From the IMG/VR virus record IMGVR_UViG_3300045988_123588: DNA of 64,000 nt. One strand, written 5' to 3'. Position 1 is the stretch's first letter; every line of letters starts with the position of its first letter. A model generated the notes under the pieces. That model worked only from the letters and a program-made list of their open reading frames with translations, was not told where the DNA came from and ran no database searches. The position numbers and the translations under genes are program-made. Positions 17,701-56,546 of the stretch are shown one piece after another. The stretch comes from a virus.

Positions 17701-18693
17701 ATGAACATAGTTAGGGCAAAGAATCCTATTAAGGCCTGGGAATATTTAGTAGAGGGATTCCTACTGAAAAAACCCGAATGGTTTGGAGAAGGAGTTGGTT
17801 ACAATATAACCAACTCTCTTTTCACGTACGATATGTGCATAGAGATAGAAGAAGCCAAGTTTAATCCCAAGTTTGACTTTGGTAAGTTGTTCTGTTATAC
17901 CATGACTAAGTGGACTGGTTTAATAACCAACTACTTCGATTTAGATGTGCTTGATGAAGCTAAGATTATGATAAGAAAGTTGGAAGAAAATAAGGTAGTG
18001 AATAGAAACTACCATATAGGCTTTCACTTTGCAGACAATCATAATAGTGGAAAGGGATGTCTGGTGGGTGGAATATTCTCTCGTAAAATAGGTGTAGAAA
18101 AACCAGAGATAACTATCATTCTACGTTCATCAGATGTAGTAACCAGATTGCCTATGGATATGCTGTTATTCTGTAGACTCGGTGAATATGTATACGGACA
18201 TACTGATTTCAAACTGGTACTGATTCTGAAAGCAGCTTTTGCAGATGATACAGCTATACTTATGTACAACAATCATAAGGAAATAAAGAAGGTAATGAAA
18301 GGCTGTGAAGATGTAGAACGTAAGAGAAAGATACGCAAATCATTCAAGAGGTTGATGACCAGTGATGAGAAGGTATATAAGACTTATGGTCACAGTTTCA
18401 GAGCTTTCAAAGCTTTGAGGAAAGATCTCTCTTATAAACGTAAGTCAATGACTGCAGGTGAATTAGAGATTGGTAACTGGGATGGTATTCCTCTTCCATA
18501 TCCATGTTCTTCAATACTCAAACGAAATGAGATAAAGAAGACCTACTTAAAGTTCACTAGTAAGTATGGGCTTAAATTAAAGCTGGAAAGTGAAGGTAAT
18601 GAAGGCAAAAGAAAGAAGCTACTATCATTCGGAGCATCAGAAGGAGAGCCAGAAGAAGTTGGATATCAAATACCAGGACAAGAAGATGAGTAA
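17701..18693 (+). CDS. thymidylate-synthase-fold (ThyA-like) protein, paralogue A
   Basis: SGKGCLVGGIF (compare PCHxxFQF) and ILRSSDVVTRLPMDMLLFCRL (compare [21 protein letters not shown]). Asp at the Asn177-equivalent position. Confidence 0.5.
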   Translation: MNIVRAKNPIKAWEYLVEGFLLKKPEWFGEGVGYNITNSLFTYDMCIEIEEAKFNPKFDFGKLFCYTMTKWTGLITNYFDLDVLDEAKIMIRKLEENKVVNRNYHIGFHFADNHNSGKGCLVGGIFSRKIGVEKPEITIILRSSDVVTRLPMDMLLFCRLGEYVYGHTDFKLVLILKAAFADDTAILMYNNHKEIKKVMKGCEDVERKRKIRKSFKRLMTSDEKVYKTYGHSFRAFKALRKDLSYKRKSMTAGELEIGNWDGIPLPYPCSSILKRNEIKKTYLKFTSKYGLKLKLESEGNEGKRKKLLSFGASEGEPEEVGYQIPGQEDE

Positions 18694-19474
18694 GCTTAAA
18701 ATAAAGGGTAACCTGTTGCAGTTCAAAACCAGCATGAAAGCTTGGGAAGGACTTAACAGGTTATTTCTGTTCAATACCCTTGGTTTGGACATAGAAAGAA
18801 TTGGTAAAGCTCAATATATAAATGATTTAGTCATTAGTATTAATGAGCCTCTAGTAGACCCAGAATTTGATTTTGGTAGGCACTTCAACTACACCATGTC
18901 AAAATGGAAGTCATTAGTAGCTAATTACATTGATGAGAATAGTTTGATTGACTTAAGACAGGAAGTCAACACAGCTATGAACTCAAGGAAGATATTCAAT
19001 ATAGGTTATCAGTTTAATAATAAACATGCTCATGGGAAGAACTGCCTATTATCTATGACAGTGTCTAAAAAGGCTGGTATGGATAAACCCATGATAACCG
19101 TGTTCATGAGGGCATCAGAAGTTACTAAAAGATTAATATGTGATTTACTCCTCATTCAACGTATGGGAGAGTATATATTTTGCAATGGTCAGAAGTTTCA
19201 AGTATCAATACATTTCAGTCAGATATTTAATGATGATACTGTATTACTAATGTACCATGCTCATGAAGATTTACTAAAGCTAAGTGATAAACTTGGTATA
19301 TACGACGGGAATTGGTATGAGCGATTAGAATACCTACTAAAAGTAGACCCTGACAAGATAAAGTATAAGGTACATAAAAGAGCTTTGAAAGTACTAAGGC
19401 CAGAATTATTCAAGTACCCAAAAACTCTGGCAAAAGATTGTACACTTGGTAATGAAGACTGGCTACCATTCTAA
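18686..19474 (+). CDS. thymidylate-synthase-fold (ThyA-like) protein, paralogue B
   Basis: Collinear with paralogue A (KAWEGL, DPEFDFG, TMSKW, HGKNCLL, FMRASEVTKRLICDLLLIQRMGEY). ATGAGTAA overlap with A. Start moved to MSKLKIKG. Confidence 0.5.
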   Translation: MSKLKIKGNLLQFKTSMKAWEGLNRLFLFNTLGLDIERIGKAQYINDLVISINEPLVDPEFDFGRHFNYTMSKWKSLVANYIDENSLIDLRQEVNTAMNSRKIFNIGYQFNNKHAHGKNCLLSMTVSKKAGMDKPMITVFMRASEVTKRLICDLLLIQRMGEYIFCNGQKFQVSIHFSQIFNDDTVLLMYHAHEDLLKLSDKLGIYDGNWYERLEYLLKVDPDKIKYKVHKRALKVLRPELFKYPKTLAKDCTLGNEDWLPF

Positions 19475-19510
19475 GATAGGGAAGTCTATTGAATTGCAAA
19501 TACCAATGCA

Positions 19511-19690
19511 ATGAAAATAGAAGTAAAGAAATCTCCTTATACCAGTAAACTCGGAGGAGATATAGATATAACTTTCTCCACTGATGATGGATGGTTATTT
19601 AATACCGTGGCCAACATAAGTGTAAAAGATTTAAGGCAGCTTAAAAGAAAGGTAAGGAGGTATCTAAGTGAAGTACGAGAGGAAAGGTAA
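19511..19690 (+). CDS. small protein (59 aa), paralogue of the next ORF
   Basis: Hand-translated; ISVKDLRQLKRKVRRYL parallels MNIQDLKELRKSIRKYI in 19668-19868. Confidence 0.35.
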   Translation: MKIEVKKSPYTSKLGGDIDITFSTDDGWLFNTVANISVKDLRQLKRKVRRYLSEVREER

Positions 19691-19868
19691 ACCATATTTT
19701 GGAGTGGAGATATCCAAGGGTAAATATCCCGATAGGAATAGCAGGGATATAGAGTTATCTATATGTATCAATGCTCATCATTGGGTAGGTCTTCCCAATA
19801 TGAATATTCAGGACCTAAAAGAACTACGAAAATCTATAAGAAAATATATTAAAAATAACGAACAATGA
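19668..19868 (+). CDS. small protein (66 aa)
   Basis: ORF with a GTG start overlapping the previous small ORF; ATGA overlap with the next gene. Confidence 0.4.
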   Translation: MKYERKGKPYFGVEISKGKYPDRNSRDIELSICINAHHWVGLPNMNIQDLKELRKSIRKYIKNNEQ

Positions 19869-20635
19869 GAATATATTCGAACCCTTACGAGTTAATGTCA
19901 GAAACTGCTCGTAATCTTTGGGAGATGGGTAATGAGGTAAAACCACGTACCTATCAGAATAAAGTTATCGAAGGCAAAGATGACTTTATTACAAAGGAAC
20001 TTATATGTGAGCAGTACTGTTTAACTCACATGGAAGACCCAGCTGCACTTTTCGTATTTACCAAGTCCAAGGACTGGGCAGATGCAGAACTAGAAGAGAG
20101 AGTAAGCGGTAGAATGGAAAATCCTGGCAAAGCTTGGGAACTTCGTAAGAATATTTGGGAAGAGTTTTTGGTCGATGGATTTTTTGACTATACCTATGCA
20201 GAACGTATGAACGAGACAGTTTCATACAAAGGTAAAGCATTCTCTAAACTCGAGGCAGTGATAGAACTGTTAAAAACAGATAACGATACAAGAAAAGCCA
20301 TATTAAATATATATGGTGAGGACGGTTTCAATGAAGATTGCGACTCAAACTACCTTGGGGGTGAACATAGAATACCATGTTCAATGTACTACGACTTCCT
20401 CATACGGGAAAATGCCCGAGGAGAGAAGCAGTTAAATATTTGTTATCACCAAAGGTCATCAGACTTTGTAACCCACTTCGGGAATGATGTATACCTGGCA
20501 TGGAGACTCATGGAATACGTAGCTAGAGAAGTGGGCATCAAACCTGGTTATCTCTATCATACTATTGATAGTTTGCATAGTTATAAAAAGGACTGGGTAA
20601 AGCTTAAAACTTCTATCCAGACCGAATTAAGGTAA
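19865..20635 (+). CDS. ThyA-family enzyme, dCMP hydroxymethylase/methylase-like
   Basis: LLKTDNDTRKAILNIY, RIPCSMYYDF and ICYHQRSSDFVTHFGNDVYLAWRLMEYVAREVGIKPGYLYHTIDSLHSY are collinear with E. coli ThyA. Asp replaces Asn177. Confidence 0.8.
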   Translation: MRIYSNPYELMSETARNLWEMGNEVKPRTYQNKVIEGKDDFITKELICEQYCLTHMEDPAALFVFTKSKDWADAELEERVSGRMENPGKAWELRKNIWEEFLVDGFFDYTYAERMNETVSYKGKAFSKLEAVIELLKTDNDTRKAILNIYGEDGFNEDCDSNYLGGEHRIPCSMYYDFLIRENARGEKQLNICYHQRSSDFVTHFGNDVYLAWRLMEYVAREVGIKPGYLYHTIDSLHSYKKDWVKLKTSIQTELR

Positions 20636-20713: not shown

Positions 20714-20787
<74 letters not shown>

Positions 20788-20864
20788 CTTATGAATCTTT
20801 ACTTTGCGCTGTGGACAACGAGTCCTGATTCATTCCCAGGTACTGGACGGTAGTGATATAGACT

Positions 20865-20874
20865 GGTACCTAAT
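20865..20874 (+). repeat. GGTACCTAAT 10-mer, copy 4 of 4, 2 nt upstream of tRNA-Pro
   Basis: Identical 10-mer at 49911-49920, 50484-50493 and 51467-51476. Confidence 0.8.
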
Positions 20875-20876
20875 TT

Positions 20877-20951
20877 ACGGAAGTAGCACAGTCCGGTCAG
20901 TGTACTTGCTTTGGGAGCAAGGGGTCGCAGGTTCGAATCCTGTCTTCCGTA
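20877..20951 (+). tRNA. tRNA-Pro(TGG): tRNA-Pro (anticodon TGG)
   Basis: 75 nt: acceptor ACGGAAG/CTTCCGT, anticodon stem CTTGC/GCAAG, loop TTTGGGA, T-arm GCAGG-TTCGAAT-CCTGT. Confidence 0.85.
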
Positions 20952-21062
20952 CAAGGGCTATATGCTGGGTCATAACAGGAGATACGACCTCCAGCTAGCA
21001 ATGGGCAATAACCTGGTACGAGATACCAAAACCCATAATTAAAGTCGAAGGCTATAGCTTTA

Positions 21063-21100
21063 GGAGATGAGCGAAGAACAGTACCTCATCTCCCCTTTTG
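21063..21100 (+). terminator. hairpin plus T-run just upstream of tRNA-Leu (terminator or processing structure)
   Basis: GGAGATGAG...CTCATCTCC followed by CCTTTTG. Confidence 0.4.
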
Positions 21101-21105
21101 TAAAG

Positions 21106-21191
21106 GCTCGGATGGTGAAATAGGTAGACACGCCGGACTTAAAATCCTGTGACCAGCAATGGTCGTGCGGGTTCGATTCCCGCTCCGAGTA
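21106..21191 (+). tRNA. tRNA-Leu(TAA): tRNA-Leu (anticodon TAA), class II long variable arm
   Basis: 86 nt: acceptor GCTCGGA/TCCGAGT, loop CTTAAAA, variable arm GACCAGCAATGGTC, T-arm GCGGG-TTCGATT-CCCGC. Confidence 0.8.
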
Positions 21192-21206
21192 CAAAATACC
21201 CTGAAC

Positions 21207-25616: not shown

Positions 25617-26405
25617 ATGAAAAAGGAAAAAACCGTTAAGAAAAAAGGTAGTGTAATGACTACCCGAGAAAAAATGCTTGCCCGGAAGAAAGACCTGGAA
25701 AAGCGTAGTGGAGGTGGTGGAATAATCTACCCGAAAGAAGGAACTACAAGAGTACGTATCAAATCACGAGGAGCAGACGAAGAACTGGGAATCGAGATTG
25801 TTCAATTCTATCTCGGACCTAAAGAGGGAGGTATTATATCTCCGGCTACTTTCGATGAGCCATGTCCTTTCATGGAGAAGTTTCAGGAGCTTAAGAACTC
25901 CGATGACCCAGATGATAAGGCATTGGCCTCGAAATTGGTGCCCAAGAGAAAGTATCTCGTAGGGGTACTTGGGTACAAAGATACCAAGGGTAAGGAAATT
26001 GACCCTGACAGGGTTGATAAGCCTATGATGGTACCACGCTCGGTATATCAAGATATTATCGACCTTTACCTCGACGAGGAGGATTGGGGTGACATGACTG
26101 ACCCCGTAGATGGATATGATATCAAGATAACCCGCACCGGTACTGGCAAGAATGACACCAGTTATTCAGTATCCCCTTGCCAGAAAACCAAGCTGGACAA
26201 GAAGTATCGGGGAGAGGTGGACTTGGAGAAAGCAATACGAGCAAATATCCTTTCCTACGAGGAGCTCGAGGAGAAGCTGGCATCATTCCTAAATGAGGGA
26301 GATGATGACGATGAAGATGAAAGACCTCGTAAGAAATCTTCTTCCAAAACCAAGCTAGCGGATAAAAAGAAAAAGGGGAAGAAGAAATATAAGGGTGATA
26401 TCTAA
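25617..26405 (+). CDS. gp32-like single-stranded DNA-binding protein
   Basis: Collinear with T4 gp32 (RVRIK, PCPFMEKF, KRKYLVGVLGY, DPVDGYDIKITRTG), with an acidic then basic tail. Start moved to MKKEKTV after the GroES stop. Confidence 0.55.
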   Translation: MKKEKTVKKKGSVMTTREKMLARKKDLEKRSGGGGIIYPKEGTTRVRIKSRGADEELGIEIVQFYLGPKEGGIISPATFDEPCPFMEKFQELKNSDDPDDKALASKLVPKRKYLVGVLGYKDTKGKEIDPDRVDKPMMVPRSVYQDIIDLYLDEEDWGDMTDPVDGYDIKITRTGTGKNDTSYSVSPCQKTKLDKKYRGEVDLEKAIRANILSYEELEEKLASFLNEGDDDDEDERPRKKSSSKTKLADKKKKGKKKYKGDI

Positions 26406-27675: not shown

Positions 27676-28585
27676 AAAACCGAGGATGCTTATGGTAGTG
27701 GACGGGAGTAATCTTGCTCACCGTTCATACCATAAGTTTAAGAATCTAAAAGCCAACAACGGAGTTGGTACAGGGTTGGTATATGGATTCTTAAGAATCT
27801 TAGGTTCATACCTAACAAGGTTTAAGCCCAGTCATGTAGTAATTACTTTCGATACTCAACAGAGCAAAGAGTCAAATTTCCGTAATGGTCTACTCGAAGG
27901 TTACAAAGCACATAGGAGTAAGATAAGTATGGATTATGAAGACTTCAATAAACAATTATCATTGTTGAGAAGGATTCTAAGATTACTCGGAGTTCAGATG
28001 ATTATTGATAGGAAGGGCCTGGGATATGAATCTGATGACTACATTGCTTGGTTGGCAATAAACCACCCAGGTAAATCTCTGATAATATCCTCTGATAAAG
28101 ACTTCTGTCAATTGCTTGATAAAAGAGTCAAGATATTCAATCCTAACAAAGATACCATAATCCTAAACCAAACCTGCAAGGATATCATGGGTTACTCTGC
28201 TGAGGAATGCGTTGACTACCTAATACTTAATGGAGATAAGTCAGATGATATCCCAGGTTATTACGGTATGGGAGAAGTGAAGACAAAAGCTTTCTTAAAA
28301 CAGTATGGGAGTATATCAGACTTCATAGATGCAGTCGGAGCAGAGTTCAAGGGTATTGAAAGGGACCAGCTAGAAGAGTTATACAAGAAGAACAAGCCTC
28401 TGATAGACTTGAGAACAGCATTAACTCTGCACCCAATCAAGAAAGTCCCTTGGGTAAAAGGATGTACTAATAATAAAAGGAAGGATAGGTTATTCATGGT
28501 ATTAGACAAGTTTAACCTTAGGTCTTTCAAGATACCCGATTTTTTGGAACCTTTCAAAAAACTACAACATTATGTACAACGGTAG
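27665..28585 (+). CDS. 5'-3' exonuclease / flap endonuclease (RNase H-like)
   Basis: MVVDGSNLAHRSYH, FDTQQS..FRN..YKAHR, ESDDYIA, SSDKDFCQL. The start could also be 27686. Confidence 0.85.
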   Translation: MRGRKPRMLMVVDGSNLAHRSYHKFKNLKANNGVGTGLVYGFLRILGSYLTRFKPSHVVITFDTQQSKESNFRNGLLEGYKAHRSKISMDYEDFNKQLSLLRRILRLLGVQMIIDRKGLGYESDDYIAWLAINHPGKSLIISSDKDFCQLLDKRVKIFNPNKDTIILNQTCKDIMGYSAEECVDYLILNGDKSDDIPGYYGMGEVKTKAFLKQYGSISDFIDAVGAEFKGIERDQLEELYKKNKPLIDLRTALTLHPIKKVPWVKGCTNNKRKDRLFMVLDKFNLRSFKIPDFLEPFKKLQHYVQR

Positions 28586-29234
28586 GAAATACCAAATCAT
28601 GTTCACCGGAGTTTCGGGAGTTGGAAAAACAACTATTGCCAAGGAAGTGGCAGATATGTTAAAGATACCTTTCATATCTGGGTCATATTCTGACTTGGTA
28701 CCTGAAACTAAAAACATGCCACATGCTGATATGATTCAGCAGGATGCCGAAACGGTATTCACACAGGATATGCAGGTACTTAATCTGCGTAACAAAGCTT
28801 TCAGGGGAGAAGATAGCTTTGTAACAGACAGGTCATACTTTGACTCAGCAGCATACTTTATCAATAAGCTATCACATAGGTTAGCTGAATGCGATTTAGA
28901 ACATGCTGTAGACTTATGTCGTATGTTACTTGGTCAACAATGTACTCATTTAATCTTCATACCTTTCTCAGCAAGATTTTTCAATGAGTGGGTAACAGAA
29001 GATAACGGTAAACGAGTACTATCAAAGTACTACCAATTCCAGGTATCACAGGTAATGTACGGACTACTTGACCTGTGGGGTTTCAAACTAGATTCAAATA
29101 TATTCCAGTATGTAAATGGTATTCCCAATACTGGTACATTGGATATCATGGGTTACAAGATTAAAGTCATGATATTGGATGAGATGAACTACGAAAAAAG
29201 GAAAAACCTTATCAACAAATTTCTTCAGTTATGA
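28572..29234 (+). CDS. P-loop nucleotide kinase-like protein (dNMP kinase or DNA-base kinase candidate)
   Basis: IMFTGVSGVGKTTIAKEVA Walker A; TDRSYFDSAAYF resembles the dNK/NadR-type kinase motif. Confidence 0.5.
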   Translation: MYNGRKYQIMFTGVSGVGKTTIAKEVADMLKIPFISGSYSDLVPETKNMPHADMIQQDAETVFTQDMQVLNLRNKAFRGEDSFVTDRSYFDSAAYFINKLSHRLAECDLEHAVDLCRMLLGQQCTHLIFIPFSARFFNEWVTEDNGKRVLSKYYQFQVSQVMYGLLDLWGFKLDSNIFQYVNGIPNTGTLDIMGYKIKVMILDEMNYEKRKNLINKFLQL

Positions 29235-33172: not shown

Positions 33173-34102
33173 ATGGAACGACATCAAGAATTGGCTTGGG
33201 ATTGTTTGACCGAGCAAGAGAGGGCCAGCCTTATGTTTATACAAGGCAAGGGTCTATCAACTTGGGAAGCTGGAGAAATTCTCAAGATGTCTCATTACAA
33301 GTACTTAGAATTAAAGGCAAGAGCTGAGAAATTCTTCAAACTATTCTCCGATTACTTTGAATTACATCCTTCACTGGTAAATCCTCAATCTCCCATAGAA
33401 CCTCGATTTAGGGATTACCTATTTGGGGCTATGGTTAAAAGACTGCCCAAAGAGGAAGCTAAAATACATTCAGGAGATTCTTCTTGGTTATTGACTTCTA
33501 TAACTAATCCCCGTATCATAAAGAATATGAAAAGGCTGAAAGAATCAGAGAATAAATGGGACAAAGACCTTTATGCTCTGATTCTTGAGTTTGATAGGTG
33601 GAATAACTATCGAATAATGCCCCGGGTATTGCAAGCTCCAACTGCATATAAGAGGAGGTCTACAAAAAAAGATAAGGTATATCTGTCTTACTTACATCGA
33701 ATACCCGACTTCAAGATAAGGCAGTTAATAACTGAGTATTGGAAAAACGGTCCCTCAAGTAGAAGATACTTTACAGCTATTGTATCAGAAGAACTCTTTC
33801 CTGAAGAAGGTTATGGAGTAATGCCCATTAAGCGAGAGGATGATATAGTTAAGGCAATAACAGATCTAAGAATATACATATTCGAGAGTCAAACCATTGC
33901 AGACACATTTGGATTATTGGCAACCCAATACTTTGAAAAAACCGTGGATAGTAAAGGGGGCTTGAAGTTCTGGAAAGAGTACAGGGAGGTCATACAGAAA
34001 GCTATTAACTACAAATCAATAAATAATATGGATTTTACTTGTGAGACTCTAGATACAGCCTATAAGTTACGCAGAAAAAGAACCTTGAAATCGAACTCTT
34101 AG
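33173..34102 (+). CDS. HTH (sigma region-4/LuxR-like) regulator candidate
   Basis: N-terminal LTEQERASLMFIQGKGLSTWEAGEILKMSHYKYLELKARAEKF. Confidence 0.4.
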   Translation: MERHQELAWDCLTEQERASLMFIQGKGLSTWEAGEILKMSHYKYLELKARAEKFFKLFSDYFELHPSLVNPQSPIEPRFRDYLFGAMVKRLPKEEAKIHSGDSSWLLTSITNPRIIKNMKRLKESENKWDKDLYALILEFDRWNNYRIMPRVLQAPTAYKRRSTKKDKVYLSYLHRIPDFKIRQLITEYWKNGPSSRRYFTAIVSEELFPEEGYGVMPIKREDDIVKAITDLRIYIFESQTIADTFGLLATQYFEKTVDSKGGLKFWKEYREVIQKAINYKSINNMDFTCETLDTAYKLRRKRTLKSNS

Positions 34103-34119: not shown

Positions 34120-34150
34120 TTTGCAACTTCAAGAAATTTGATTATATTTG
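34120..34150 (+). promoter_or_regulatory. Bacteroidota-type promoter (-33 TTTG, 19 nt, -7 TATATTTG)
   Basis: TTTGCA at 34120, TATATTTG at 34143-34150. The 28 nt 34143-34170 are identical to 41798-41825. Confidence 0.65.
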
Positions 34151-34190: not shown

Positions 34191-34757
34191 ATGCGCAAAA
34201 GTAAGAAAAAAGACAAAAGACCGTTAAAGCTTAACAAGGAAAAGCTAAAGGTCATGGGAAGTGGGTTAGAAAATATGACCTACAAGGACATGAAGAGAAG
34301 AGCAGTTTCTCTCGGCATGCCATTCCCCGATGCTTGTTCAGCTGATTACAATGGACTATCATCATGGATTCACCATTCGGATAATAAGCCGGACAATGCT
34401 CTTATCGATGAATATGATAAGTGGATGGACCAGCAATTAGAACTTGCTGGATATCCCAAGGATGACCCAATGAGGAATTATCAACTCAATCTTGGGTTCA
34501 TCGGTGAAGATGCAGTCACTAAGCAGAAAAAGACCAAACGGGTAAAGGGGTTGGAAAAACCCAAAAAGCCGAAGAAAGAGAAGGATGACAATGGTCTTTG
34601 GAAAGGAACTAAGAAATCCTACGTATTCGAATTAACCTATAAAGGGTTGTCAATCGATAGAATCACCCGGAGAGTGCAAAAGAGATTCCCAGACGCCAAG
34701 GAAAAATCCATTCAGCAATGGTATCGGGCAGCACTCCGTAAACAAAAGAAAGAGTAA
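34191..34757 (+). CDS. Lys-rich hypothetical protein
   Basis: 188 aa, basic N- and C-termini. Confidence 0.55.
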   Translation: MRKSKKKDKRPLKLNKEKLKVMGSGLENMTYKDMKRRAVSLGMPFPDACSADYNGLSSWIHHSDNKPDNALIDEYDKWMDQQLELAGYPKDDPMRNYQLNLGFIGEDAVTKQKKTKRVKGLEKPKKPKKEKDDNGLWKGTKKSYVFELTYKGLSIDRITRRVQKRFPDAKEKSIQQWYRAALRKQKKE

Positions 34758-36274: not shown

Positions 36275-36314
36275 TCAATCAAACATTTTTTAAACACCTT
36301 TAATCAATTTAATT

Positions 36315-36824
36315 ATGGCAAAGAAAAAAGCTGCAGCAAAAGAGGTAGAACGCAAGGTTCTCTCTAACGGGGTAATTCTCATCAAATACGATGACGATTC
36401 CTATGCACTCCTGACTCCCATCTCGGCAGAAGACGCCGAAGAAATTTTCGGTGGGGAATCCGAGGATTCGGACGACGAGGACGAAGAAGACGAGGATGAA
36501 GATGAGTCGGATGACGAAGATTCCGATGAAGACGAAGACGAGGAGGATTCTGACGAAGAAGAAGACGAGGACGAGGACGGCGATGAGGATGAAGAGGACG
36601 AAGATGAAGAGGATGACGACGAGGTAACCCCCGAGGACCTGGCCGGCATGGACTTCGAAGCTCTCGAAGACCTCTGCGACGACAAAGAACTCGAAACTGA
36701 CCCCGACGAATTCGACGAGGAAGACGTCGAGAAACTCCGCAAAGCGGTGGCCAAGGAACTGAACATCACCCTGCCCAAGGCAAAGGCCGCTTCCAAGAAG
36801 GACACCAAGAAAAAGAAAAAGTAA
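36315..36824 (+). CDS. poly-acidic protein (about 75-residue D/E tract) with Lys-rich termini
   Basis: 169 aa; ESEDSDDEDEEDEDEDESDDEDSDEDEDEEDSDEEEDEDEDGDEDEEDEDEEDDDE; markedly GC-rich codons. Confidence 0.7.
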   Translation: MAKKKAAAKEVERKVLSNGVILIKYDDDSYALLTPISAEDAEEIFGGESEDSDDEDEEDEDEDESDDEDSDEDEDEEDSDEEEDEDEDGDEDEEDEDEEDDDEVTPEDLAGMDFEALEDLCDDKELETDPDEFDEEDVEKLRKAVAKELNITLPKAKAASKKDTKKKKK

Positions 36825-36853
36825 GGGTCCTTCTGACTATAACCAAATCCAAG

Positions 36854-36920
36854 GGTCCCCCGGGAATCGCTAAATGCTTAAACTCCATAGGCTATGGCCA
36901 AACGTTCGGGGGACCTTTTA
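36854..36920 (+). terminator. compound hairpin plus T-run
   Basis: GGTCCCCCG...CGGGGGACC enclosing CCATAGgCTATGG, followed by TTTTAT. Confidence 0.5.
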
Positions 36921-36947
36921 TAACAAAACCATTTAATCAAATATAAC

Positions 36948-37373
36948 ATGGCAACGAAGAAAAAGGCAGCAGAAGCAAAAGCTGCAAAGAAAGAGGAATC
37001 GAAAAAGGGCGGTAAGAAAGAACTGACCGCTGAAGAGAAGAAGGCTAAGCGAGAAGCGATGAAAGAACGACTCAAGAACCGGGCACCGGGTCAGCGACCG
37101 AACAGCAAACAGTGCGACATCATCGACCTGGGCGGCGGCAACGTTGCAAAGACCTTCGCCATGAACGTCCGGAAGTACGGAGTTCTCATCACCTCGGTCG
37201 TAACCGACAAGGATGGCAAAGTGATTGCCGTCTCGAATGCCACCATTCCGGGGGTATCGGTTAAATCCAAGAAAGAGCACGGCACTCTGGTCCCCAAGGT
37301 ACCCGGCATGGGCAAGAAAGGGAAAGCCGCCGAAGCTGAGGATGACGAGGAGGATGAAGACGATGAGGAATAG
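36948..37373 (+). CDS. Lys-rich protein with an acidic tail
   Basis: 141 aa, MATKKKAAEAKAAKKEESKKGGKK...EDDEEDEDDEE, GC-rich codons. Confidence 0.65.
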   Translation: MATKKKAAEAKAAKKEESKKGGKKELTAEEKKAKREAMKERLKNRAPGQRPNSKQCDIIDLGGGNVAKTFAMNVRKYGVLITSVVTDKDGKVIAVSNATIPGVSVKSKKEHGTLVPKVPGMGKKGKAAEAEDDEEDEDDEE

Positions 37374-37418
37374 GTCCTGAGCACCCAATCCTACGTACAT
37401 CAACACTTGAGTCATACA

Positions 37419-37462
37419 GGGGAGGCCATCCGAAGGTTTAAGGGTGGGCCTCCCCACTTTGT
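37419..37462 (+). terminator. rho-independent terminator
   Basis: GGGGAGGCC...GGCCTCCCC followed by ACTTTGTAT. Confidence 0.6.
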
Positions 37463-37470
37463 ATAGATAT

Positions 37471-37698
37471 ATGCAAGACGACGACAGCATCATATATCTG
37501 GCATTATGCAATCAGCTACAATCATACCAGCTGTTGCTAGAGGAAGAAAAAGATATCTCTGAAGAAAATAGAATGATGACAGAGTATATTATCTCTAGAA
37601 CAGAGGAATTGATTGATAAGTATGCCCAGAAAATAGGAAGTGACACCACTATTCAAAGACCTCAATGGGACAATTTAACACCTCAGTCAAAGGGTTGA
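37471..37698 (+). CDS. hypothetical protein
   Basis: Start moved to MQDDDS, outside the terminator hairpin. Confidence 0.45.
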   Translation: MQDDDSIIYLALCNQLQSYQLLLEEEKDISEENRMMTEYIISRTEELIDKYAQKIGSDTTIQRPQWDNLTPQSKG

Positions 37699-37724
37699 TA
37701 TATCGGATTAAAGAACTAACCAAA

Positions 37725-38045
37725 ATGGTTCAAGATATAGATACAAGGTTATCTATGCCTGGACTGTCTCCTGGTAAAAGGCAAGCTTTAATCAAAGATA
37801 AGACCCTAAAAATAGGTAAGGTAAAATCTCTGGCAAAGCGCATAGAAGATTTAACAAATGGAAACATCTTAACCATAACTTTTGAAAACAAGGGCTCTGG
37901 TGAAAGGTTTAGGATTACATACACCAACATATCTCAGGATGATGCTGTTGCTCATCTTAAGTTGATGGCAAATCTTCAGGGAATGGAAATAATCATCTCA
38001 GAGATAAAGGAAGTACAGACCAAAAACTCCTTAACCAAACTATAA
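37725..38045 (+). CDS. hypothetical protein
   Basis: Start uncertain (37665 or 37725). Confidence 0.45.
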   Translation: MVQDIDTRLSMPGLSPGKRQALIKDKTLKIGKVKSLAKRIEDLTNGNILTITFENKGSGERFRITYTNISQDDAVAHLKLMANLQGMEIIISEIKEVQTKNSLTKL

Positions 38046-38094
38046 ACATGCAAAGGTAATTCAAACTAATTTTCATTTAATCAACTCAACAACA

Positions 38095-38658
38095 ATGGCA
38101 AAAGACATCAGCAAAAAAGACCTGGCTGCAAAGAAAGCCCGCCGGGCTCAGAAGGAAATGCTGGCCTACATGGAAGAGAACGACCTCGACCCCAAGAAAG
38201 ATTGGACAGGCCACAAGAAGCATGGAAAGAAAATCCAGGCCTGGGTAGACATCATCAATCTCGGGAACAAAAAGGCCAGAGCAGCTACGGAAGAGAAGGC
38301 CGTAGAAAAGGCCAAGAAAAACCAGAAGCCCGAAGCCCATCCTAAGAAGGAAAAGGTCACAAGTACACCCAATGCTTATGACTACCCAACAGTGGACGGC
38401 AAGGAGATGACCTCTGACCAGAAGAAAAAGTACCGTCAGAAGATGCGTACTCTTCTGAAGACCATGTCCAAAGAGAAAGCAGAGGCCGAGGGCAAGAAGT
38501 ATGCTGCAGAGTTGGCATCAGGTGCTCCGGCAGCTGCTCCCAAGAAAGAGAAGAAGGCAAAGAAGGAAGAGCCGGCCAAGGAAAAGAAGGCCGAGAAACC
38601 TTCGAAAGAAGGCAAGGACAAGAAGAAGAAAAAGAAGTCTAAGAAAGAGGAGGATTAA
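38095..38658 (+). CDS. Lys-rich low-complexity protein
   Basis: 187 aa, KKEKKAKKEEPAKEKKAEKPSKEGKDKKKKKKSKKEED tail, GC-rich codons. Confidence 0.65.
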   Translation: MAKDISKKDLAAKKARRAQKEMLAYMEENDLDPKKDWTGHKKHGKKIQAWVDIINLGNKKARAATEEKAVEKAKKNQKPEAHPKKEKVTSTPNAYDYPTVDGKEMTSDQKKKYRQKMRTLLKTMSKEKAEAEGKKYAAELASGAPAAAPKKEKKAKKEEPAKEKKAEKPSKEGKDKKKKKKSKKEED

Positions 38659-38688
38659 CCCGATAGGCAATCAGTGAAACTTCTCATG

Positions 38689-38724
38689 CCCCCGAATCTA
38701 TACAAGGTTCGGGGTTCTTTGTTG
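38689..38724 (+). terminator. rho-independent terminator
   Basis: CCCCGAA...TTCGGGG followed by TTCTTTGTT. Confidence 0.6.
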
Positions 38725-41871: not shown

Positions 41872-42327
41872 ATGAAAAAGAACAAGAAAAATCAGGCTCA
41901 GAAAACTGAAAAGACCAACCTGGTAGAGGGAATCAACAACCTCATCGAAGAGAAGACCCAGAAGGTCGAGAAATCCAAGAAGGCTCTGAAGGCAGAGGTC
42001 AAAAAGGAGGAAACTCCTGAAGCGGCCAAGGAGAAGAAGGTCAAGAAGACCAAGAAGGAGAAACTGGTCGATAAGACCAAGAAAAAAGTCGAAGCCAATC
42101 TCGTAGAAGAGGTGGTAACGAAACGGGAGGTTAAATACATCTACCCCGCCGACTGCGAAGACACCCTTTCCAGGAAAAAGTTCCGGCAGCAGGTCCGAAA
42201 CAAGATTCACCAGCTGGAGCTGGCCATGCTCCGAATCGAGAACCAGGATTCGAAGGAGTTCAAGAAGGCCAAGAAGGAATACCTGGAGTACAAGAACCAA
42301 TTCGTCAAGGAATCCGTTGCAATCTAA
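41872..42327 (+). CDS. Lys-rich protein
   Basis: 151 aa, KEKKVKKTKKEKLVDKTKKK; GC-rich codons. Confidence 0.65.
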   Translation: MKKNKKNQAQKTEKTNLVEGINNLIEEKTQKVEKSKKALKAEVKKEETPEAAKEKKVKKTKKEKLVDKTKKKVEANLVEEVVTKREVKYIYPADCEDTLSRKKFRQQVRNKIHQLELAMLRIENQDSKEFKKAKKEYLEYKNQFVKESVAI

Positions 42328-42406
42328 TCTTTCATAGTAGGAGAGGGGGCACAGGGCTAAGGCTCTGGCCCCTCAGTATAATCACCTTTTAACGATATGA
42401 AAGATT

Positions 42407-52256: not shown

Positions 52257-52406
52257 CTGCAAGGACTTTTTGGGCTCCTCGCATTAAGCTCCTCCTGAAA
52301 GGTACATGCCACATGGGTACATAACCCCATCCCCCTCTCCATACACAAAATGAAGAACCCATCTAAAGGCTCTTCATAAAATTTTTCCAGGATATTTTTA
52401 GGGCTC

Positions 52407-52808
52407 CTATTGTAAGGCCTCTGCCTTAACCCTATATATCCCTATCAGTTTATCAAATGCTTTAATCCTTGATTCTATATCAAGCCTATCCCACCAATAT
52501 ATTTCCCGAATAGAAAGGTTATCATTAAGACCTTTATAGGCTTCAGTATTCTTGTCACCACCCAGGAAATCAAAGTTAAACTCAGGTATCAGGATAGTCA
52601 ACCAATCTGGACTATACATTACCTCTCCCTCATAGGTACATAAATCATGGCCCATCTCTCTCAGTATGAGGACTAAGTTATCCATCAGATCCCTATGTCT
52701 ATATACAGCTTTCTTAAAGGCATTGCACATACCTTTACCATATTTCCAACATTCCTTGGCATACTTTATCCAAGCCAAGATAACCTTATCCTTATCTACT
52801 TGTTCCAT
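52407..52808 (-). CDS. hypothetical protein
   Basis: 133-aa ORF, last gene of the minus-strand block. Confidence 0.5.
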   Translation of the reverse strand: MEQVDKDKVILAWIKYAKECWKYGKGMCNAFKKAVYRHRDLMDNLVLILREMGHDLCTYEGEVMYSPDWLTILIPEFNFDFLGGDKNTEAYKGLNDNLSIREIYWWDRLDIESRIKAFDKLIGIYRVKAEALQ

Positions 52809-52811
52809 AGG

Positions 52812-53000
52812 TTATAATAAAATGAGGATTGTAAGAAAGCAAACCAGAATGCAAAATATTCCAAATATAAATAACTCACCTAATATTTGAAGATATTTTC
52901 TAGAAGTATTGCCTAAGATTGAAAGGATAAGCCCTATTATTCCTATTAAGAAAGTAATTCCTATGGTTATCCAAAGGCATATAAATAAATTATGAATCAT
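52812..53000 (-). CDS. small membrane protein
   Basis: 62 aa, two hydrophobic helices. Confidence 0.45.
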   Translation of the reverse strand: MIHNLFICLWITIGITFLIGIIGLILSILGNTSRKYLQILGELFIFGIFCILVCFLTILILL

Positions 53001-53050
53001 AAGCTTTAGTTTTAAGGATATAGACTTGGGATAATCGTTTCGGTATCAAG

Positions 53051-53091
53051 CTATACACACAATAAGAGGGACCCAATCAAAGAGTCCCTCT
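53051..53091 (-). terminator. terminator of cassette P1
   Basis: Minus strand: AGAGGGAC...GTCCCTCT followed by TATTGTGTGT. Confidence 0.55.
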
Positions 53092-53099
53092 ACTAAATA

Positions 53100-53507
53100 C
53101 TAAATATCTGCCAGGTTGATAACAGGATTCATACTCATACTCAGGTTAACGGTATCAACCTGCTGAGCATAGTCATCTGTGGGCATAAATATACCACTTC
53201 TTTTAACGTATATATTCACTATTCTTAAGTCGAAGTTAATGTCAAAAGATGGGAACCCAATTATATGCACTCCCTCTGGGAAAGTCGGACTTTGGGAAGC
53301 CGTTAAATCCATGACCAGTTTAATACCATCTATTCTACCTTCTATTAAGTCAGTGATTATCTGTTTGAGTACACTGACTTCGGTAACAAATCCAATGTAG
53401 GCCCAGTTTGGGTTAGTAGACTTGTTGTTTTCAAGTTTGATTTCTGCGAATTTCATATCATCTTCGATTATAGGTACATTACCTTGGTGAAATAAAAATA
53501 AACTCAT
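53100..53507 (-). CDS. FH(S/Q)xNVP-family protein P1
   Basis: Start moved to MSLFLFHQGNVPIIEDDMKFAEIKL to match its paralogues. Confidence 0.6.
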   Translation of the reverse strand: MSLFLFHQGNVPIIEDDMKFAEIKLENNKSTNPNWAYIGFVTEVSVLKQIITDLIEGRIDGIKLVMDLTASQSPTFPEGVHIIGFPSFDINFDLRIVNIYVKRSGIFMPTDDYAQQVDTVNLSMSMNPVINLADI

Positions 53508-53523
53508 ATCGTATGGTTTATGG

Positions 53524-53556
53524 ATTAAAAGTATATCACTATGATATACTTTTAAT
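53524..53556. promoter_or_regulatory. perfect palindrome upstream of P1
   Basis: ATTAAAAGTATATCA-cta-TGATATACTTTTAAT, 16 nt from the start codon. Confidence 0.75.
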
Positions 53557-53562
53557 GACGTA

Positions 53563-53610
53563 ATGTACACACAACAAAGCCCAGTAGAAACCTATAAACT
53601 ACTGGGCTTT
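53563..53610 (-). terminator. terminator of cassette P2
   Basis: Minus strand: AAAGCCCAGTAG...CTACTGGGCTTT followed by GTTGTGTGT. Confidence 0.65.
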
Positions 53611-53614
53611 ATTT

Positions 53615-54034
53615 TTAATCTATATTCCAATAAAAACCGTCCACTGGTGAACATGTAACTATTTCTCGGTTACCAGGTAAACTGTCAATAGTTATCTGTT
53701 GTATGATTTGGTCTCCGTTTTTACTCAGTACAGCAAACATAACCATTCCAAGTACCACCCTATTAGAATCTCTAAGGTTAATATAAATCGGTGGGTATAT
53801 GTACCCATACTTGTCCATCTCTCCGCTATTTTGAAGGGCTTTGTTATCGAATATCACTCTTACAGCATCTACCTTACCGTCGATGATATCCTGGGTTAAT
53901 TGTTGGGTCTCTTCTTCCGTGGATTGGAATTCGAACCCATTCCAATCTGTACTGGCTATTTTCAAATCTCTGACTACCATATCTTCATTTAGTGTGAAAG
54001 GCACATTGCCTGAATGAAACATTAACAAACTCAT
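53615..54034 (-). CDS. FH(S/Q)xNVP-family protein P2
   Basis: MSLLMFHSGNVPFTLNEDM... Confidence 0.6.
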   Translation of the reverse strand: MSLLMFHSGNVPFTLNEDMVVRDLKIASTDWNGFEFQSTEEETQQLTQDIIDGKVDAVRVIFDNKALQNSGEMDKYGYIYPPIYINLRDSNRVVLGMVMFAVLSKNGDQIIQQITIDSLPGNREIVTCSPVDGFYWNID

Positions 54035-54053
54035 AAGTTGTAAGGTTTATTGG

Positions 54054-54082
54054 TAAGAGTATATCTCTAAGATATACTCTTA
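54054..54082. promoter_or_regulatory. perfect palindrome upstream of P2
   Basis: TAAGAGTATATCT-cta-AGATATACTCTTA, 19 nt from the start codon. Confidence 0.75.
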
Positions 54083-54091
54083 GGTGACCTA

Positions 54092-54129
54092 CTCACACAA
54101 AAATACCCAACTAAATTAGCTGGGTATTT
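54092..54129 (-). terminator. terminator of cassette P3
   Basis: Minus strand: AAATACCCA...TGGGTATTT followed by TTGTGTGAG. Confidence 0.6.
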
Positions 54130-54140
54130 GAGTTGTATAG

Positions 54141-54581
54141 TTATTCTACCGTTTCCATGGTAATGGTTCCTGTAGAGGAAATAGTGATACATTGTATTGA
54201 CCTGTATGAACCATCTCCTTGACCTTTTACAGGTAATTGCCACGAAGTTGTACTTCTTAATACCGGTATACACGGTAAGTAGATATTTATACTACCAGGT
54301 ACTTGATAGTTACTGATATTCATAACAATACCTATGGTATCTACTTCATACAATTTACTACCATTACTAGTTGACCGTCCCCTTATGATAGGGATCACTG
54401 GCTCAGCATCATTAGCTGAAGCAGTCCTTACCAAAAGGTCGAAAGCTTGTTTACCAGTCATACCCAGTACAGAGTTAAATACTGGATACTCTCCCTGTTC
54501 CATGGGCAGGTCCACTAAAAAAATTATCGGCTTCATATTTTCCAAGATTTGTAATACATTCTGTGAGTGAAATCCTAACAT
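54141..54581 (-). CDS. FH(S/Q)xNVP-family protein P3
   Basis: MLGFHSQNVLQILENMK... Confidence 0.6.
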   Translation of the reverse strand: MLGFHSQNVLQILENMKPIIFLVDLPMEQGEYPVFNSVLGMTGKQAFDLLVRTASANDAEPVIPIIRGRSTSNGSKLYEVDTIGIVMNISNYQVPGSINIYLPCIPVLRSTTSWQLPVKGQGDGSYRSIQCITISSTGTITMETVE

Positions 54582-54613
54582 AGTTTTTGGTGTTAAGGTC
54601 CTTATATACGCAT

Positions 54614-54641
54614 AAAAGTATTTCTTCTAAGAAATACTTTT
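54614..54641. promoter_or_regulatory. perfect palindrome in the divergent P3/P4 intergenic region
   Basis: AAAAGTATTTCTT-ct-AAGAAATACTTTT; 32 nt from the P3 start and 25 nt from the P4 start. Confidence 0.75.
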
Positions 54642-54666
54642 ACCATTAAACACATACAATACAGCT

Positions 54667-55071
54667 ATGTTAGGATTCCATTCTCAAAATGTACCAATCA
54701 CAATAATAGAAGATGATATGAAGTTTGCAAAGTTACCATTACCAACTAATGACATTGGGAGTTGGAGAAAAGATGCTCTTTCTACTGCTCAGCTAATAAG
54801 CATCTACACTCAGGCTAAAAATGAACAGATAGATGGAGTCATGATAGTGGATAGTATTGACTATGGCGGTCAATATGAACAAAGAGCCATATCCACTGGA
54901 TTAAGGGTCAACCCTAACGAAGTACGATTTGACTTCAACTATGGTCATACCACAGAAGATGGTCAAGCTATCGGCAGAGGTTTTGTCAACGACGACCAAA
55001 CCACAGCTATATACAGAGTTATAATTACAAGTGCTGGAGTACTAACCTATAGTTACACTTCGTTGGAATAA
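54667..55071 (+). CDS. FH(S/Q)xNVP-family protein P4 (inverted orientation)
   Basis: MLGFHSQNVPITIIEDDMKFAKLPL... Confidence 0.6.
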   Translation: MLGFHSQNVPITIIEDDMKFAKLPLPTNDIGSWRKDALSTAQLISIYTQAKNEQIDGVMIVDSIDYGGQYEQRAISTGLRVNPNEVRFDFNYGHTTEDGQAIGRGFVNDDQTTAIYRVIITSAGVLTYSYTSLE

Positions 55072-55084
55072 AAAAAAACGCTAA

Positions 55085-55115
55085 ATAGGAGGTCAGTAAA
55101 TATCTGACCTCCTAT
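55085..55115. terminator. bidirectional terminator between convergent genes
   Basis: ATAGGAGGTCAG-taaatat-CTGACCTCCTAT followed by TATGTGTG. Confidence 0.7.
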
Positions 55116-55133
55116 TATGTGTGATTATATTTA

Positions 55134-55448
55134 CTACTTTTGGTCTGGTTCTTTGACCTTAGCCTTTTGTTTGAAGTAGAACTTGGTTTCTACGAAAAGA
55201 TAGGGGTATTCCTTATTTTCGGGGTCATACACCAAAGTATAATCTACCCCTCTAACGTTGGCTTTCATGTAATGAAACTTTCTCCAGGCTTTATCATTGA
55301 GATTTTTGATGACTTGTTCAAAAGAACGTACAAAACCAACTCTCTTCCTTAGGTACTTCTTTGTTCTACCAACTTCTTGGTAAAACATTTCTTCTATTAC
55401 TCCACCAGCAGCATAAAACTGACCCGGAGTATAAACTTTTACTGCCAT
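55134..55448 (-). CDS. hypothetical protein
   Basis: 104-aa ORF. Confidence 0.5.
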   Translation of the reverse strand: MAVKVYTPGQFYAAGGVIEEMFYQEVGRTKKYLRKRVGFVRSFEQVIKNLNDKAWRKFHYMKANVRGVDYTLVYDPENKEYPYLFVETKFYFKQKAKVKEPDQK

Positions 55449-55461
55449 ATAGATATTTTGA

Positions 55462-55812
55462 TTAAGGTTCCCAAATGTCGAATGTTTGACCTTGAGCTGT
55501 AGTTATTCTTAATGAATAATGTTCTCTTACTACCCTTAGCTTAGTAAAGGTTAGGTCATGTTTACGGTATACATACTCCTCTAAGGATGATATCTCATTT
55601 TCAATATTGCCCTTTAATTGACCACTGAACTTTTGGGTGAACCCTTGAGTAAGATTATTTATCTTTCCAGTGAGTTTATCCCGTAAAAGGGAAGGAATAT
55701 TCCCGTCTATGATTACTTTCTCTATATAAGCATCCCAAACAGGAATAGATTGCTTCTCTTCATCACTGGCTTTCCTCAAGATTATTTCAATGTCGTTTAA
55801 TTCTATTATCAT
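55462..55812 (-). CDS. hypothetical protein
   Basis: 116-aa ORF. Confidence 0.5.
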   Translation of the reverse strand: MIIELNDIEIILRKASDEEKQSIPVWDAYIEKVIIDGNIPSLLRDKLTGKINNLTQGFTQKFSGQLKGNIENEISSLEEYVYRKHDLTFTKLRVVREHYSLRITTAQGQTFDIWEP

Positions 55813-56047
55813 TCTTGAAAAGAATTTTGAATGTTAGTATTAACAATCCGGTTATTACTGCAGGACTAACTGCCCATATTAGAAATAAAACTCCATACCT
55901 TACCTTATTAGAGGCTTTCTTAAGAGGAGTTTCTTCTACTACACTGTAGATAAACAAGCAGAAAATAAATCCGAGAGTGTAGAATACTAAAAGGGTATAA
56001 CCCAACCAAGCCGGAGTGGGATTAGCAGTCATCAGGATATCAGACAT
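55787..56047 (-). CDS. small membrane protein
   Basis: 86 aa, 2-3 TM helices. Confidence 0.5.
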   Translation of the reverse strand: MSDILMTANPTPAWLGYTLLVFYTLGFIFCLFIYSVVEETPLKKASNKVRYGVLFLIWAVSPAVITGLLILTFKILFKNDNRIKRH

Positions 56048-56235
56048 GAGATGATTATTATGATGGTAATACAGATTATGAATGTTTGAATAGTTTCTTT
56101 CTTACCTTTGGACCAAGATTCGTTACCATCATACTCTTTATCAGCTTCTTTAATAGCTTTCCAAGTCATACCTCCACAATATGCAGAGTAACTAATAACG
56201 TTGACTGTAATCCAATGTAGTAAGAAACGTATCAT
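56032..56235 (-). CDS. small membrane protein
   Basis: 67 aa, TM helices at both ends. Confidence 0.45.
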   Translation of the reverse strand: MIRFLLHWITVNVISYSAYCGGMTWKAIKEADKEYDGNESWSKGKKETIQTFIICITIIIIISCLIS

Positions 56236-56546
56236 TTTCCTTCTATTTTTTCTATAATACGACTGATTTTGGCAGCGGCATACCTGATTATATCAGGATT
56301 TTCAATCCCTTTCTTGTTGATGGCAGCCAATTTCTCCAAATCACGGTTTAAAGTTCTCTGTGCTACCAGAGTTTTATACTTTTCTTCGTTAAAAACCTCA
56401 ATTTGATATTTAGAATTGATAGGACGAAGAGTCCGGTCAGTCTTAATACCATTGTCGAGGGTGTAGATTCCCTTTTTCCTCTCTTTAATAGCCGTCTTTT
56501 CAAAGAAGGCAGGGCCTGTTACCAGTAGTAAATCACCAACTTTCAT
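56232..56546 (-). CDS. hypothetical protein
   Basis: 104-aa ORF. Confidence 0.5.
   Translation of the reverse strand: MKVGDLLLVTGPAFFEKTAIKERKKGIYTLDNGIKTDRTLRPINSKYQIEVFNEEKYKTLVAQRTLNRDLEKLAAINKKGIENPDIIRYAAAKISRIIEKIEGK

Follow-up and report, generated by a model that had tools for sequence, protein, structure and literature searches.

The 64-kb stretch of viral DNA catalogued as IMG/VR record IMGVR_UViG_3300045988_123588 (the whole of which, 64,000 nucleotides, is called the window here) carries four orphan genes, encoding an acidic protein of 169 residues and lysine-rich proteins of 141, 187 and 151 residues, which are real genes under strong purifying selection and which probably surpass all other genes of the phage in expression. 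Gene order shows the acidic and basic genes to be a syntenic set, conserved as far as distant relatives. The reading that we favour, tentatively and with somewhat less than even confidence, is that they form an abundant, early-type and non-structural module whose products bind or mimic nucleic acid and would serve host takeover and genome organisation.

The acidic, 141-residue and 187-residue open reading frames (ORFs) exist exactly where a preceding sequence-only reading of this DNA had placed them (Table 1). Its description of the genes as GC-rich also holds, as islands of 50–56% GC, in a genome of 35–40% GC, coincide with these three ORFs and with the 151-residue gene. The additional Lys-rich genes that it had listed at 34191, 41872 (the 151-residue gene), 43091 and 51816 proved to be real as well, with Lys contents of 15–25%. 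When all four genes were compared with their counterparts in three relatives, the ratio of non-synonymous to synonymous substitution (dN/dS) lay between 0.02 and 0.22. Gene order is kept in every relative examined, that is, in relatives of 28–41% GC and also in distant contigs of 60–69 kb (30–32% GC): the 188-residue Lys-rich protein comes first, followed by at least three small genes, the acidic protein, the 141-residue protein, at least two further small genes, a Lys-rich protein ending in EED, EDD or DED (the 187-residue protein in the window) and, further on, the 151-residue protein.

The four genes are also set apart by codon choice. Their GC content at third codon positions (GC3) contrasts with a median of ~0.36 for the other ORFs, and the fraction NNC/(NNC+NNT) is 0.73 in these high-bias genes versus 0.41 elsewhere. 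Within four-fold degenerate families C occupies the third position at a frequency of 0.44 versus 0.16, while the frequency of G is unchanged (0.11 versus 0.09), so that the bias is specific to C-ending codons, which indicates selection on codon choice and not a GC-rich origin. Recent horizontal acquisition as the source of the GC-rich islands was rejected, because only C and not G is raised at third positions and because the genes are ancient in the phage family. An external yardstick is provided by the GenBank genome MT121964 (Phage DP SC_6_H4_2017, a virtually unannotated record from human faeces that matches 67% of the query at 78.6% identity), which has 35% GC and a median GC3 of 0.30. Its highest GC3 values belong to the 141-residue gene (0.54) and the 151-residue gene (0.47), with the genes for the major capsid protein (0.45) and the tail tube (0.44) next in rank and the tail sheath gene (0.34) barely over the median. 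From a bias that equals or exceeds that of capsid and tail-tube genes we infer very high expression, in amounts comparable to those of the main virion proteins. Bias towards C-ending codons may also help to pick out abundant proteins in uncultured Bacteroidota phages.

The region is rich in predicted host-type promoters. The pattern TTTG-N17-21-TAnnTTTG, which we take to be the Bacteroidetes -33/-7 promoter form, occurs 13 times in the window against 2.4 occurrences expected. Nine sites of the form TTTGCA-N18/19-TATATTTG, often followed by yAtAA, are intergenic, lie on the + strand and are spread between 34120 and 50697, over ~17 kb of unknown genes, which suggests that this is an early-type region read by the host polymerase. 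One further TTTGCA...TATATTTG copy is found on the minus strand near 9466. The first promoter opens a unit that runs from 34120 to the terminator at 38690–38714 and holds three of the four genes; the next host-type promoter begins at 38755.

Inside this unit each high-bias gene is bracketed by a start-context motif and a hairpin. The motif TTTAATCAA has five exact copies in the window, three of which stand 5–14 nucleotides upstream of the three ATGGCAA starts, and related AACC(A/T)TTAA elements are present in relatives. Its candidate roles are those of a minimal phage-specific promoter, a site of RNA processing and a context for translation. The AT-rich element, as TTTAATCAA or AACC(A/T)TTAA, was also noted at 2474, 11080, 41852 and 51793, and at 12725 and 15313 of relative L082; it sits 5–25 nucleotides before ATGGCA starts, often directly after a hairpin. 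The sequence-only reading had assigned a GC-rich terminator to each gene. A GC-rich hairpin with a U-rich tail does follow each of them, but only the third passes a strict terminator scan. In diverged relatives hairpins of unrelated sequence occur at the matching positions, mostly followed by clear T-runs; for the hairpin after the acidic gene, the position is the same and the sequence different in most, not all, of these relatives. Since the ATG of the 75-residue gene lies only 14 nucleotides past the hairpin of the 141-residue gene, the small genes must depend on at least some read-through.

The 141-residue protein consists of an Ala/Lys-rich N-terminal arm, a helix (residues 28–43), a six-strand beta core (54–116), a Lys/Gly linker and an Asp/Glu (D/E) tail, and in its AlphaFold model (predicted local distance difference test score, pLDDT, 65) a single helix and an antiparallel meander of six strands lie between disordered ends. 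All members of the family share the MATKK or MAKKK start, the Ala/Lys/Pro-rich arm and an invariant NRPxGQRxNSKQ segment, after which come the beta core, the KSKKGHG...GMGKKGK linker and the D/E tail. The family comprises 332 clusters in a collection of 5.8 billion proteins; an exhaustive profile search of 1.84 billion representatives returned 46 clusters, nearly all from this phage group. Remote homologues (P0275, P0281) keep the basic arm, the beta core and the acidic tail, which measures 12–20 residues. Two candidates were set aside for this protein. A fusion of a MarR-type helix-turn-helix to the beta core (P0260; L083, ENA ERZ504687), which if real would tie the core domain to DNA-binding regulators, is a probable assembly chimera, because it lies on a 1.7-kb contig of 1.0x coverage beside an ABC transporter. 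A role as the single-stranded DNA-binding protein (SSB) of the phage was given up, since a gp32-like SSB is encoded elsewhere in the genome; neither an SSB profile nor an OB-fold matched.

The acidic protein begins with MAKKK and is composed of a small N-domain (residues 1–47), a D/E tract (48–103), an acidic-helical C-domain of 66 residues (104–169) and a Lys tail. The tract is shorter than the 75 or so residues first estimated: the protein holds 79 D/E residues in total, and the uninterrupted stretch of only D, E, S and G measures 56. Its length ranges from 16 to 70 residues across 47 loci and is 46 in L002, a locus 98.6% identical in DNA to that of the window. This variability explains why the family splits into 2567 clusters at 90% identity in the protein collection. 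The N-domain is conserved and the C-domain well conserved (MDFEELEDVCDDKDLETDPDDYDE..EKLRKAIAKELGIxLP, then the Lys tail). In some relatives the tract holds at least 50 consecutive Glu residues. Some further ORFs were set aside: a 135-residue poly-Ser ORF on the minus strand (36401–36808) was discarded as an antisense mirror of the GAN repeats and is no gene, and the +1 frames of the D/E tract and of the tail of the 187-residue gene yield Arg/Lys-rich ORFs (36451–36627 and 38501–38677) that are probably meaningless by-products of purine repeats.

The 187-residue protein, whose family comprises 165 clusters, is predicted to form a confident helical hairpin (residues 7–75) with an LDPxKDW..HGKK loop, then helices within 107–142, and to end in a disordered Lys tail with KKEED at its end. 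Between the helical parts lies the segment YDYP..DG.EMT...KKKYRxKMR, which has a counterpart in the 151-residue protein, where it ends in KKFRQQVR. The two proteins share the motif Y-x-Y/F-P...KK-x-[FYWH]-R-x3-R (at 38377–38448 and 42136–42198), the residues of which are invariant in both families; translated in six frames, the window contains it exactly two times, and shuffles never do. As hhalign aligned just this 29-column motif between the two families (E 0.019, probability 2.4%), we claim a shared motif and not homology; it suggests a common docking partner. Of the five peptides that the sequence-only reading had grouped under one helix-like motif, these two stand, while the other three are generic K/R/E helices. 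Among Lys-rich proteins of the phage group, otherwise unrelated to each other, the motif takes the form Y-x-Y/F-P-x(3-12)-[KR][KR]-x-[FYWH]-R-x(2,3)-R, and it was also seen in a third, unrelated protein of 115 residues at 3263 of L086.

The earlier statement that the proteins belong to no named family was borne out by searches of Pfam, PHROG, NCBIfam, PDB sequences and Foldseek, all without a match. Pfam, PHROGs and NCBIfam gave nothing past low-complexity matches for the three proteins of the unit and their neighbours, and member-wise Pfam scans of two family alignments (49 members) gave no real match. Profiles of all five alignments, searched against PDB sequences, reached a best E of 0.06. 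Against PDB and BFVD, the AlphaFold models gave a single significant match, an uncharacterised homologue of the 141-residue protein; the likeness of this protein's model to a WRKY-like beta-sheet in PDB (E 0.12) was not used, and the 187-residue model had no fold match and only a weak resemblance to long basic eukaryotic ribosomal proteins (E above 1). Particular families were looked for as well: (i) no HU/IHF (Bac_DNA_binding) or other nucleoid-protein profile of Pfam or NCBIfam matched the proteins of the set or the 49 family members; (ii) among ribosomal-protein profiles only Ribosomal_60s was hit, by the D/E tail of two of 25 members and through low complexity; (iii) the acidic protein matched no Ocr or ArdA profile in Pfam or PHROG, its one match being a low-complexity one to phrog_34306; and (iv) no PHROG head or packaging profile, as would be expected of T4-type internal head or scaffold proteins, was matched.

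Table 1. Genes, expression signals and genome landmarks, in coordinates of the window.
Feature	Position	Strand	Remarks
Tail and baseplate proteins	157-8717		PHROG profiles
gp32-like SSB	25617-26405		PHROG profile
Predicted host-type Bacteroidetes promoter, TTTGCA-N19-TATATTTG	34120..34150	+	Opens the three-gene unit; same promoter before the homologous first gene in relatives
Lys-rich protein, 188 residues, conserved first gene of the unit	34191..34757	+	19% Lys; GC3 0.47; same position in all relatives
TTTAATCAA start-context motif	36299..36307	+	7 nucleotides before the ATG of the acidic gene
Acidic protein, 169 residues	36315..36824	+	GC3 0.60; dN/dS 0.03-0.22
Hypervariable poly-D/E tract, GAN repeats	36456..36623	+	Degenerate tandem repeats, period 6-33
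Long GC-rich hairpin, then TTTTAT, after the acidic gene	36851..36918	+	-33 kcal/mol fold for 36825-36925
TTTAATCAA motif before the 141-residue gene	36932..36940	+	
'MATKK' protein, 141 residues	36948..37373	+	GC3 0.63; dN/dS 0.02-0.07; tail AEDDEEDEDDEE
GC-rich hairpin, then CTTTGTAT, after the 141-residue gene	37418..37457	+	Relatives have hairpins here, then T5-T7 runs
Two conserved small genes (75 and 126 residues)	37471..38045	+	GC3 0.39 and 0.36 (ordinary codon usage); syntenic; between high-bias genes
TTTAATCAA motif before the 187-residue gene	38076..38084	+	
Lys-rich protein, 187 residues	38095..38658	+	GC3 0.63; dN/dS 0.02-0.05; end ...KKKKKKSKKEED
Canonical intrinsic terminator closing the unit, after the 187-residue gene	38690..38714	+	
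Lys-rich protein, 151 residues, fourth member of the set	41872..42327	+	Own host-type promoter at 41774; hairpin 42343-42374; GC3 0.72, the maximum in the window
Large terminase (TerL), portal and head protease	from 58959		PHROG profiles

The surrounding genome is that of a myovirus-like phage and agrees in layout with the "Flandersviridae", an uncultured group of gut phages that infect Bacteroidota. The window has ~37% GC overall (range 35–45%), and nearly all of its genes are on the + strand, in the order baseplate, DnaB, primase, PolA, SSB, UvsX, SbcCD, unknown region, TerL, portal and protease. PHROG profiles identified a DnaB helicase, a primase, a second helicase and a family-A DNA polymerase (PolA), and further a UvsX-like recombinase, SbcCD, a RusA-like resolvase and a GroES-like protein. 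Flandersviridae have been described as uncultured phages of Bacteroides and Parabacteroides with a colinear genome of roughly 85 kb, in which a structural block with sheath and baseplate genes is followed by DnaB, DnaG and PolA and then by ~20 kb without detectable similarity (Benler et al.). Gene content and order, relatives on contigs of 75–88 kb and the Bacteroidetes promoter motifs all agree with membership, an assignment that rests on layout compared with the published description. By this layout, the charged-protein genes fall inside the unknown-gene locus of the group. Besides MT121964, the only real phage match in GenBank was MT836405, a faecal fragment without annotation; protein relatives were found on contigs of 75–88 kb. 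A host search in GTDB genomes found the gene only in bins of metagenome-assembled genomes (MAGs) of mutually conflicting taxa and identified no host. The contigs of the phage group in question (L088–L091) were binned as Dysosmobacter, Clostridium, Collinsella and Mycoplasma, labels so inconsistent with each other that they point to binning contamination and are no evidence of host.

Other features of the genome were recorded in passing. Three phage transfer RNA genes, for Met (CAT), Pro (TGG) and Leu (TAA), lie at 20714–21192. Genes for dUTPase-like, MazG-like pyrophosphohydrolase, thymidylate-synthase-like and dNMP-kinase-like proteins within the replication module (16214–20635 and 28572–29234) may belong to a modified-nucleotide pathway. 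A block of minus-strand genes (52400–57160), between the promoter-rich region and the terminase gene, breaks the + strand genome. Directly upstream of the three-gene unit is a conserved protein of 309 residues (33173–34102), the N-terminus of which (LTEQERASLMFIQGKGLSTWEAGEILKMSHYKYLELKARAEKF) resembles a sigma region-4/LuxR-type helix-turn-helix by eye only, profile and PDB searches giving no match.

How might the four proteins act together? On the favoured reading, the three genes of the unit and the gene at 41872 would supply bulk polyelectrolyte proteins during host takeover. The basic proteins have arms and tails that are typical of non-specific nucleic-acid binders. The 141-residue protein would be a non-specific DNA coat whose D/E tail shields basic surfaces, as in phi29 p6 or HMGB1, while the 187- and 151-residue proteins would be H1-like binders using Lys-rich disordered arms and docking on a common partner through the YxYP...KKxRxxxR module. 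The acidic protein would be a flexible polyanion, flanked on either side by a small conserved domain and basic at its ends, and would act as a Gp44-like nucleic-acid mimic that soaks up DNA- or RNA-binding proteins of the host (RNA polymerase, nucleoid proteins or restriction systems); it might take up the phage's own basic proteins as well.

Several points weigh against this reading. None of the Pfam, PHROG, PDB or Foldseek searches found homology or fold similarity to any characterised DNA binder or DNA mimic, and the structure models are of moderate confidence only (pLDDT 65 and 72). The rise in GC3 depends on lineage: the window and L050 show it strongly, the L064–L079 group mildly and the most AT-rich relatives, such as L061 with 28% GC, not at all. 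A codon bias at the level of capsid genes would fit structural proteins equally well. As to timing, it is a single kind of evidence, the promoter type, that suggests early expression of the set, and the 'hairpin - TTTAAT - ATGGCAAA' punctuation also precedes the gene that follows the capsid gene in MT121964. Net charges of the acidic and basic proteins fail to co-vary, as detailed below. A search of the literature for cultured relatives or expression studies of this phage group found none, and transcript-like short contigs sought in Logan assemblies turned out to be ordinary fragments.

Some of these points bear on an alternative that we judge unlikely, in which the proteins are packaged as internal or core components of the virion. 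The basic proteins would then travel with the DNA and neutralise its charge, as do the internal proteins of T4 or protein VII of adenovirus, and the acidic protein would be a scaffold or core component or an ejected anti-restriction protein. Codon bias at or above that of the capsid and tail-tube genes is as for stoichiometric proteins, the phage has T4-like replication and recombination genes (gp32-like SSB, UvsX, SbcCD), and start context and hairpin punctuation are common to head-module genes of MT121964 and to 63536 in the window. However, the genes lie ~20 kb upstream of those for terminase, portal and protease, the head genes, and their unit starts at a host-type promoter, which speaks for early proteins acting inside the cell more than for purely packaged internal ones. 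Furthermore, no PHROG 'internal head protein' or scaffold profile was matched, no N-terminal targeting or cleavage signal is common to the proteins past MAKKK/MATKK, and an acidic tail such as that of the 141-residue protein is typical of intracellular DNA-binding proteins. The interpretation first given to the genes, as a nucleic-acid condensation or chaperone set or as packaged internal proteins, is plausible and only partly supported.

Equally improbable, in our estimate, is that nothing but strong expression signals unites the genes, which would stand side by side and encode proteins of unrelated function, for example an Ocr-like anti-restriction decoy next to Lys-rich proteins acting on RNA or the ribosome. 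A separate hairpin follows each high-bias gene, the third gene is set apart by low-bias genes, and the 151-residue member lies 3 kb away behind its own promoter. The families differ widely in size (2567, 332 and 165 clusters for the acidic, 141-residue and 187-residue proteins), and the resemblance of the 187-residue model to ribosomal proteins, weak and non-significant as it is (E above 1), points in the same direction. A loose collection of this kind is hard to square with the strict conservation of gene order across the whole phage family, and no ribosomal-protein, Ocr or ArdA profile was matched.

We regard as doubtful, more so than either of these alternatives, that the acidic and basic proteins, whose pairing the sequence-only reading had pointed out, are a matched acid–base pair, with the polyanion chaperoning the Lys-rich proteins in the style of nucleoplasmin or prothymosin-alpha or forming charge-driven condensates as replication compartments. 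The acidic gene stands directly upstream of the 141-residue gene in every relative, distant ones included, all the proteins are predicted to be made in large amounts, their charges are large and opposite (-31 to -71 versus +21 to +35), and long disordered segments are predicted. Yet across 44 loci the acidic protein's net charge shows no co-variation with that of the 187-residue protein (rho 0.03) and no clear one with that of the 141-residue protein (rho 0.25, p 0.11), and the length of the tract shifts freely between near-identical genomes. An elaboration of this idea that we hold to be the least probable of all is a polyanion/polycation system, in which the poly-D/E protein would be a histone-chaperone-like partner or condensate counter-ion for the H1-like and p6-like proteins, building in Bacteroides a genome or replication compartment that lacks a membrane, or loading a protein coat on the DNA that hides the genome from restriction and CRISPR; were it true, it would be a bacterial-virus analogue of a chaperone/linker-histone pair.

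Returning to the favoured reading of a nucleic-acid-binding or -mimicking module, its interest lies in the prominence of the phages concerned. Phages of the Flandersviridae/Gubaphage type have been described as among the most prevalent and diverse human gut viruses, and our search of the literature found no cultured member and no interpretation of the ~20-kb unknown locus. Within this locus the present analysis singles out four orphan genes and offers the hypotheses that one product coats the genome, that another is a flexible mimic of nucleic acid and that a shared motif serves docking. If true, these would show how such phages take over Bacteroides and would bring new families to the viral histone-like proteins and the disordered DNA mimics, of which only few are listed so far.

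Among characterised proteins, the 141-residue protein is most readily set beside phi29 p6, an abundant early protein of alpha+beta, mainly beta structure that coats the viral genome and reaches about 700,000 copies per cell. Crystal structures of p6 have been solved. The protein binds DNA through basic surfaces, and its acidic C-terminal tail, which is disordered and varies in length, lowers DNA affinity. Akin to p6, the 141-residue protein combines a basic arm, a beta core and an acidic tail; unlike p6, it has an Ala/Lys-rich N-terminal arm, and it comes from a different type of phage in another host phylum. A relationship by descent found no support, as the profile search of the 141-residue family against PDB sequences gave nothing below E 0.7 and p6 was not among the matches listed by Foldseek for the model (pLDDT 65) against PDB, where the best E was 0.12.

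The acidic protein recalls SPO1 Gp44, an early host-takeover protein with a small folded DNA-binding N-domain, a disordered middle and a required C-terminal domain. The middle region of Gp44 has 57% D/E and no basic residues, behaves like single-stranded DNA and binds the beta/beta' subunits of RNA polymerase. The three-part plan is the same in the acidic protein, with its N-domain, D/E/S/G tract and C-domain, but the tract is purer and hypervariable in length, and Lys runs are found at both ends; profiles of the N- and C-domains found no relative in PDB, the Gp44 N-domain (6L6V) included. As opposed to the folded mimics Ocr and ArdA, the acidic part is a low-complexity tract of variable length.

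As small, basic proteins, members of the set also resemble T4 IPI–IPIII and adenovirus protein VII, abundant proteins that travel with the genome, but their genes lie outside the head module and behind a host-type promoter, and no shared cleavable targeting peptide was seen. Bacterial nucleoid proteins include H1-like, Lys/Ala-rich forms such as chlamydial Hc1 and Hc2, and the Lys-rich tails of actinobacterial HU are of the same kind. The set shares with these the low-complexity K/A/E/P tails, such as KKEKKAKKEEPAKEKKAEKPSKEGKDKKKKKK, and N-terminal arms such as KKAAEAKAAKKEESKK; it differs in having no HU/IHF domain and in its conserved helical domains and YxYP...KKxRxxxR motif, which are specific to the phage group. 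Finally, the acidic disordered regions of histone chaperones are described as DNA mimics that shield histones (PMC10987829). Like nucleoplasmin, Nap1 and prothymosin-alpha, the acidic protein has a long, disordered poly-D/E region, here encoded beside genes for very basic proteins, although there is no homology to these chaperones and no co-variation of charge. Taken together, these comparisons suggest that the uncharacterised families described here, confined to one very common group of human gut phages, look like known kinds of viral protein in their architecture.

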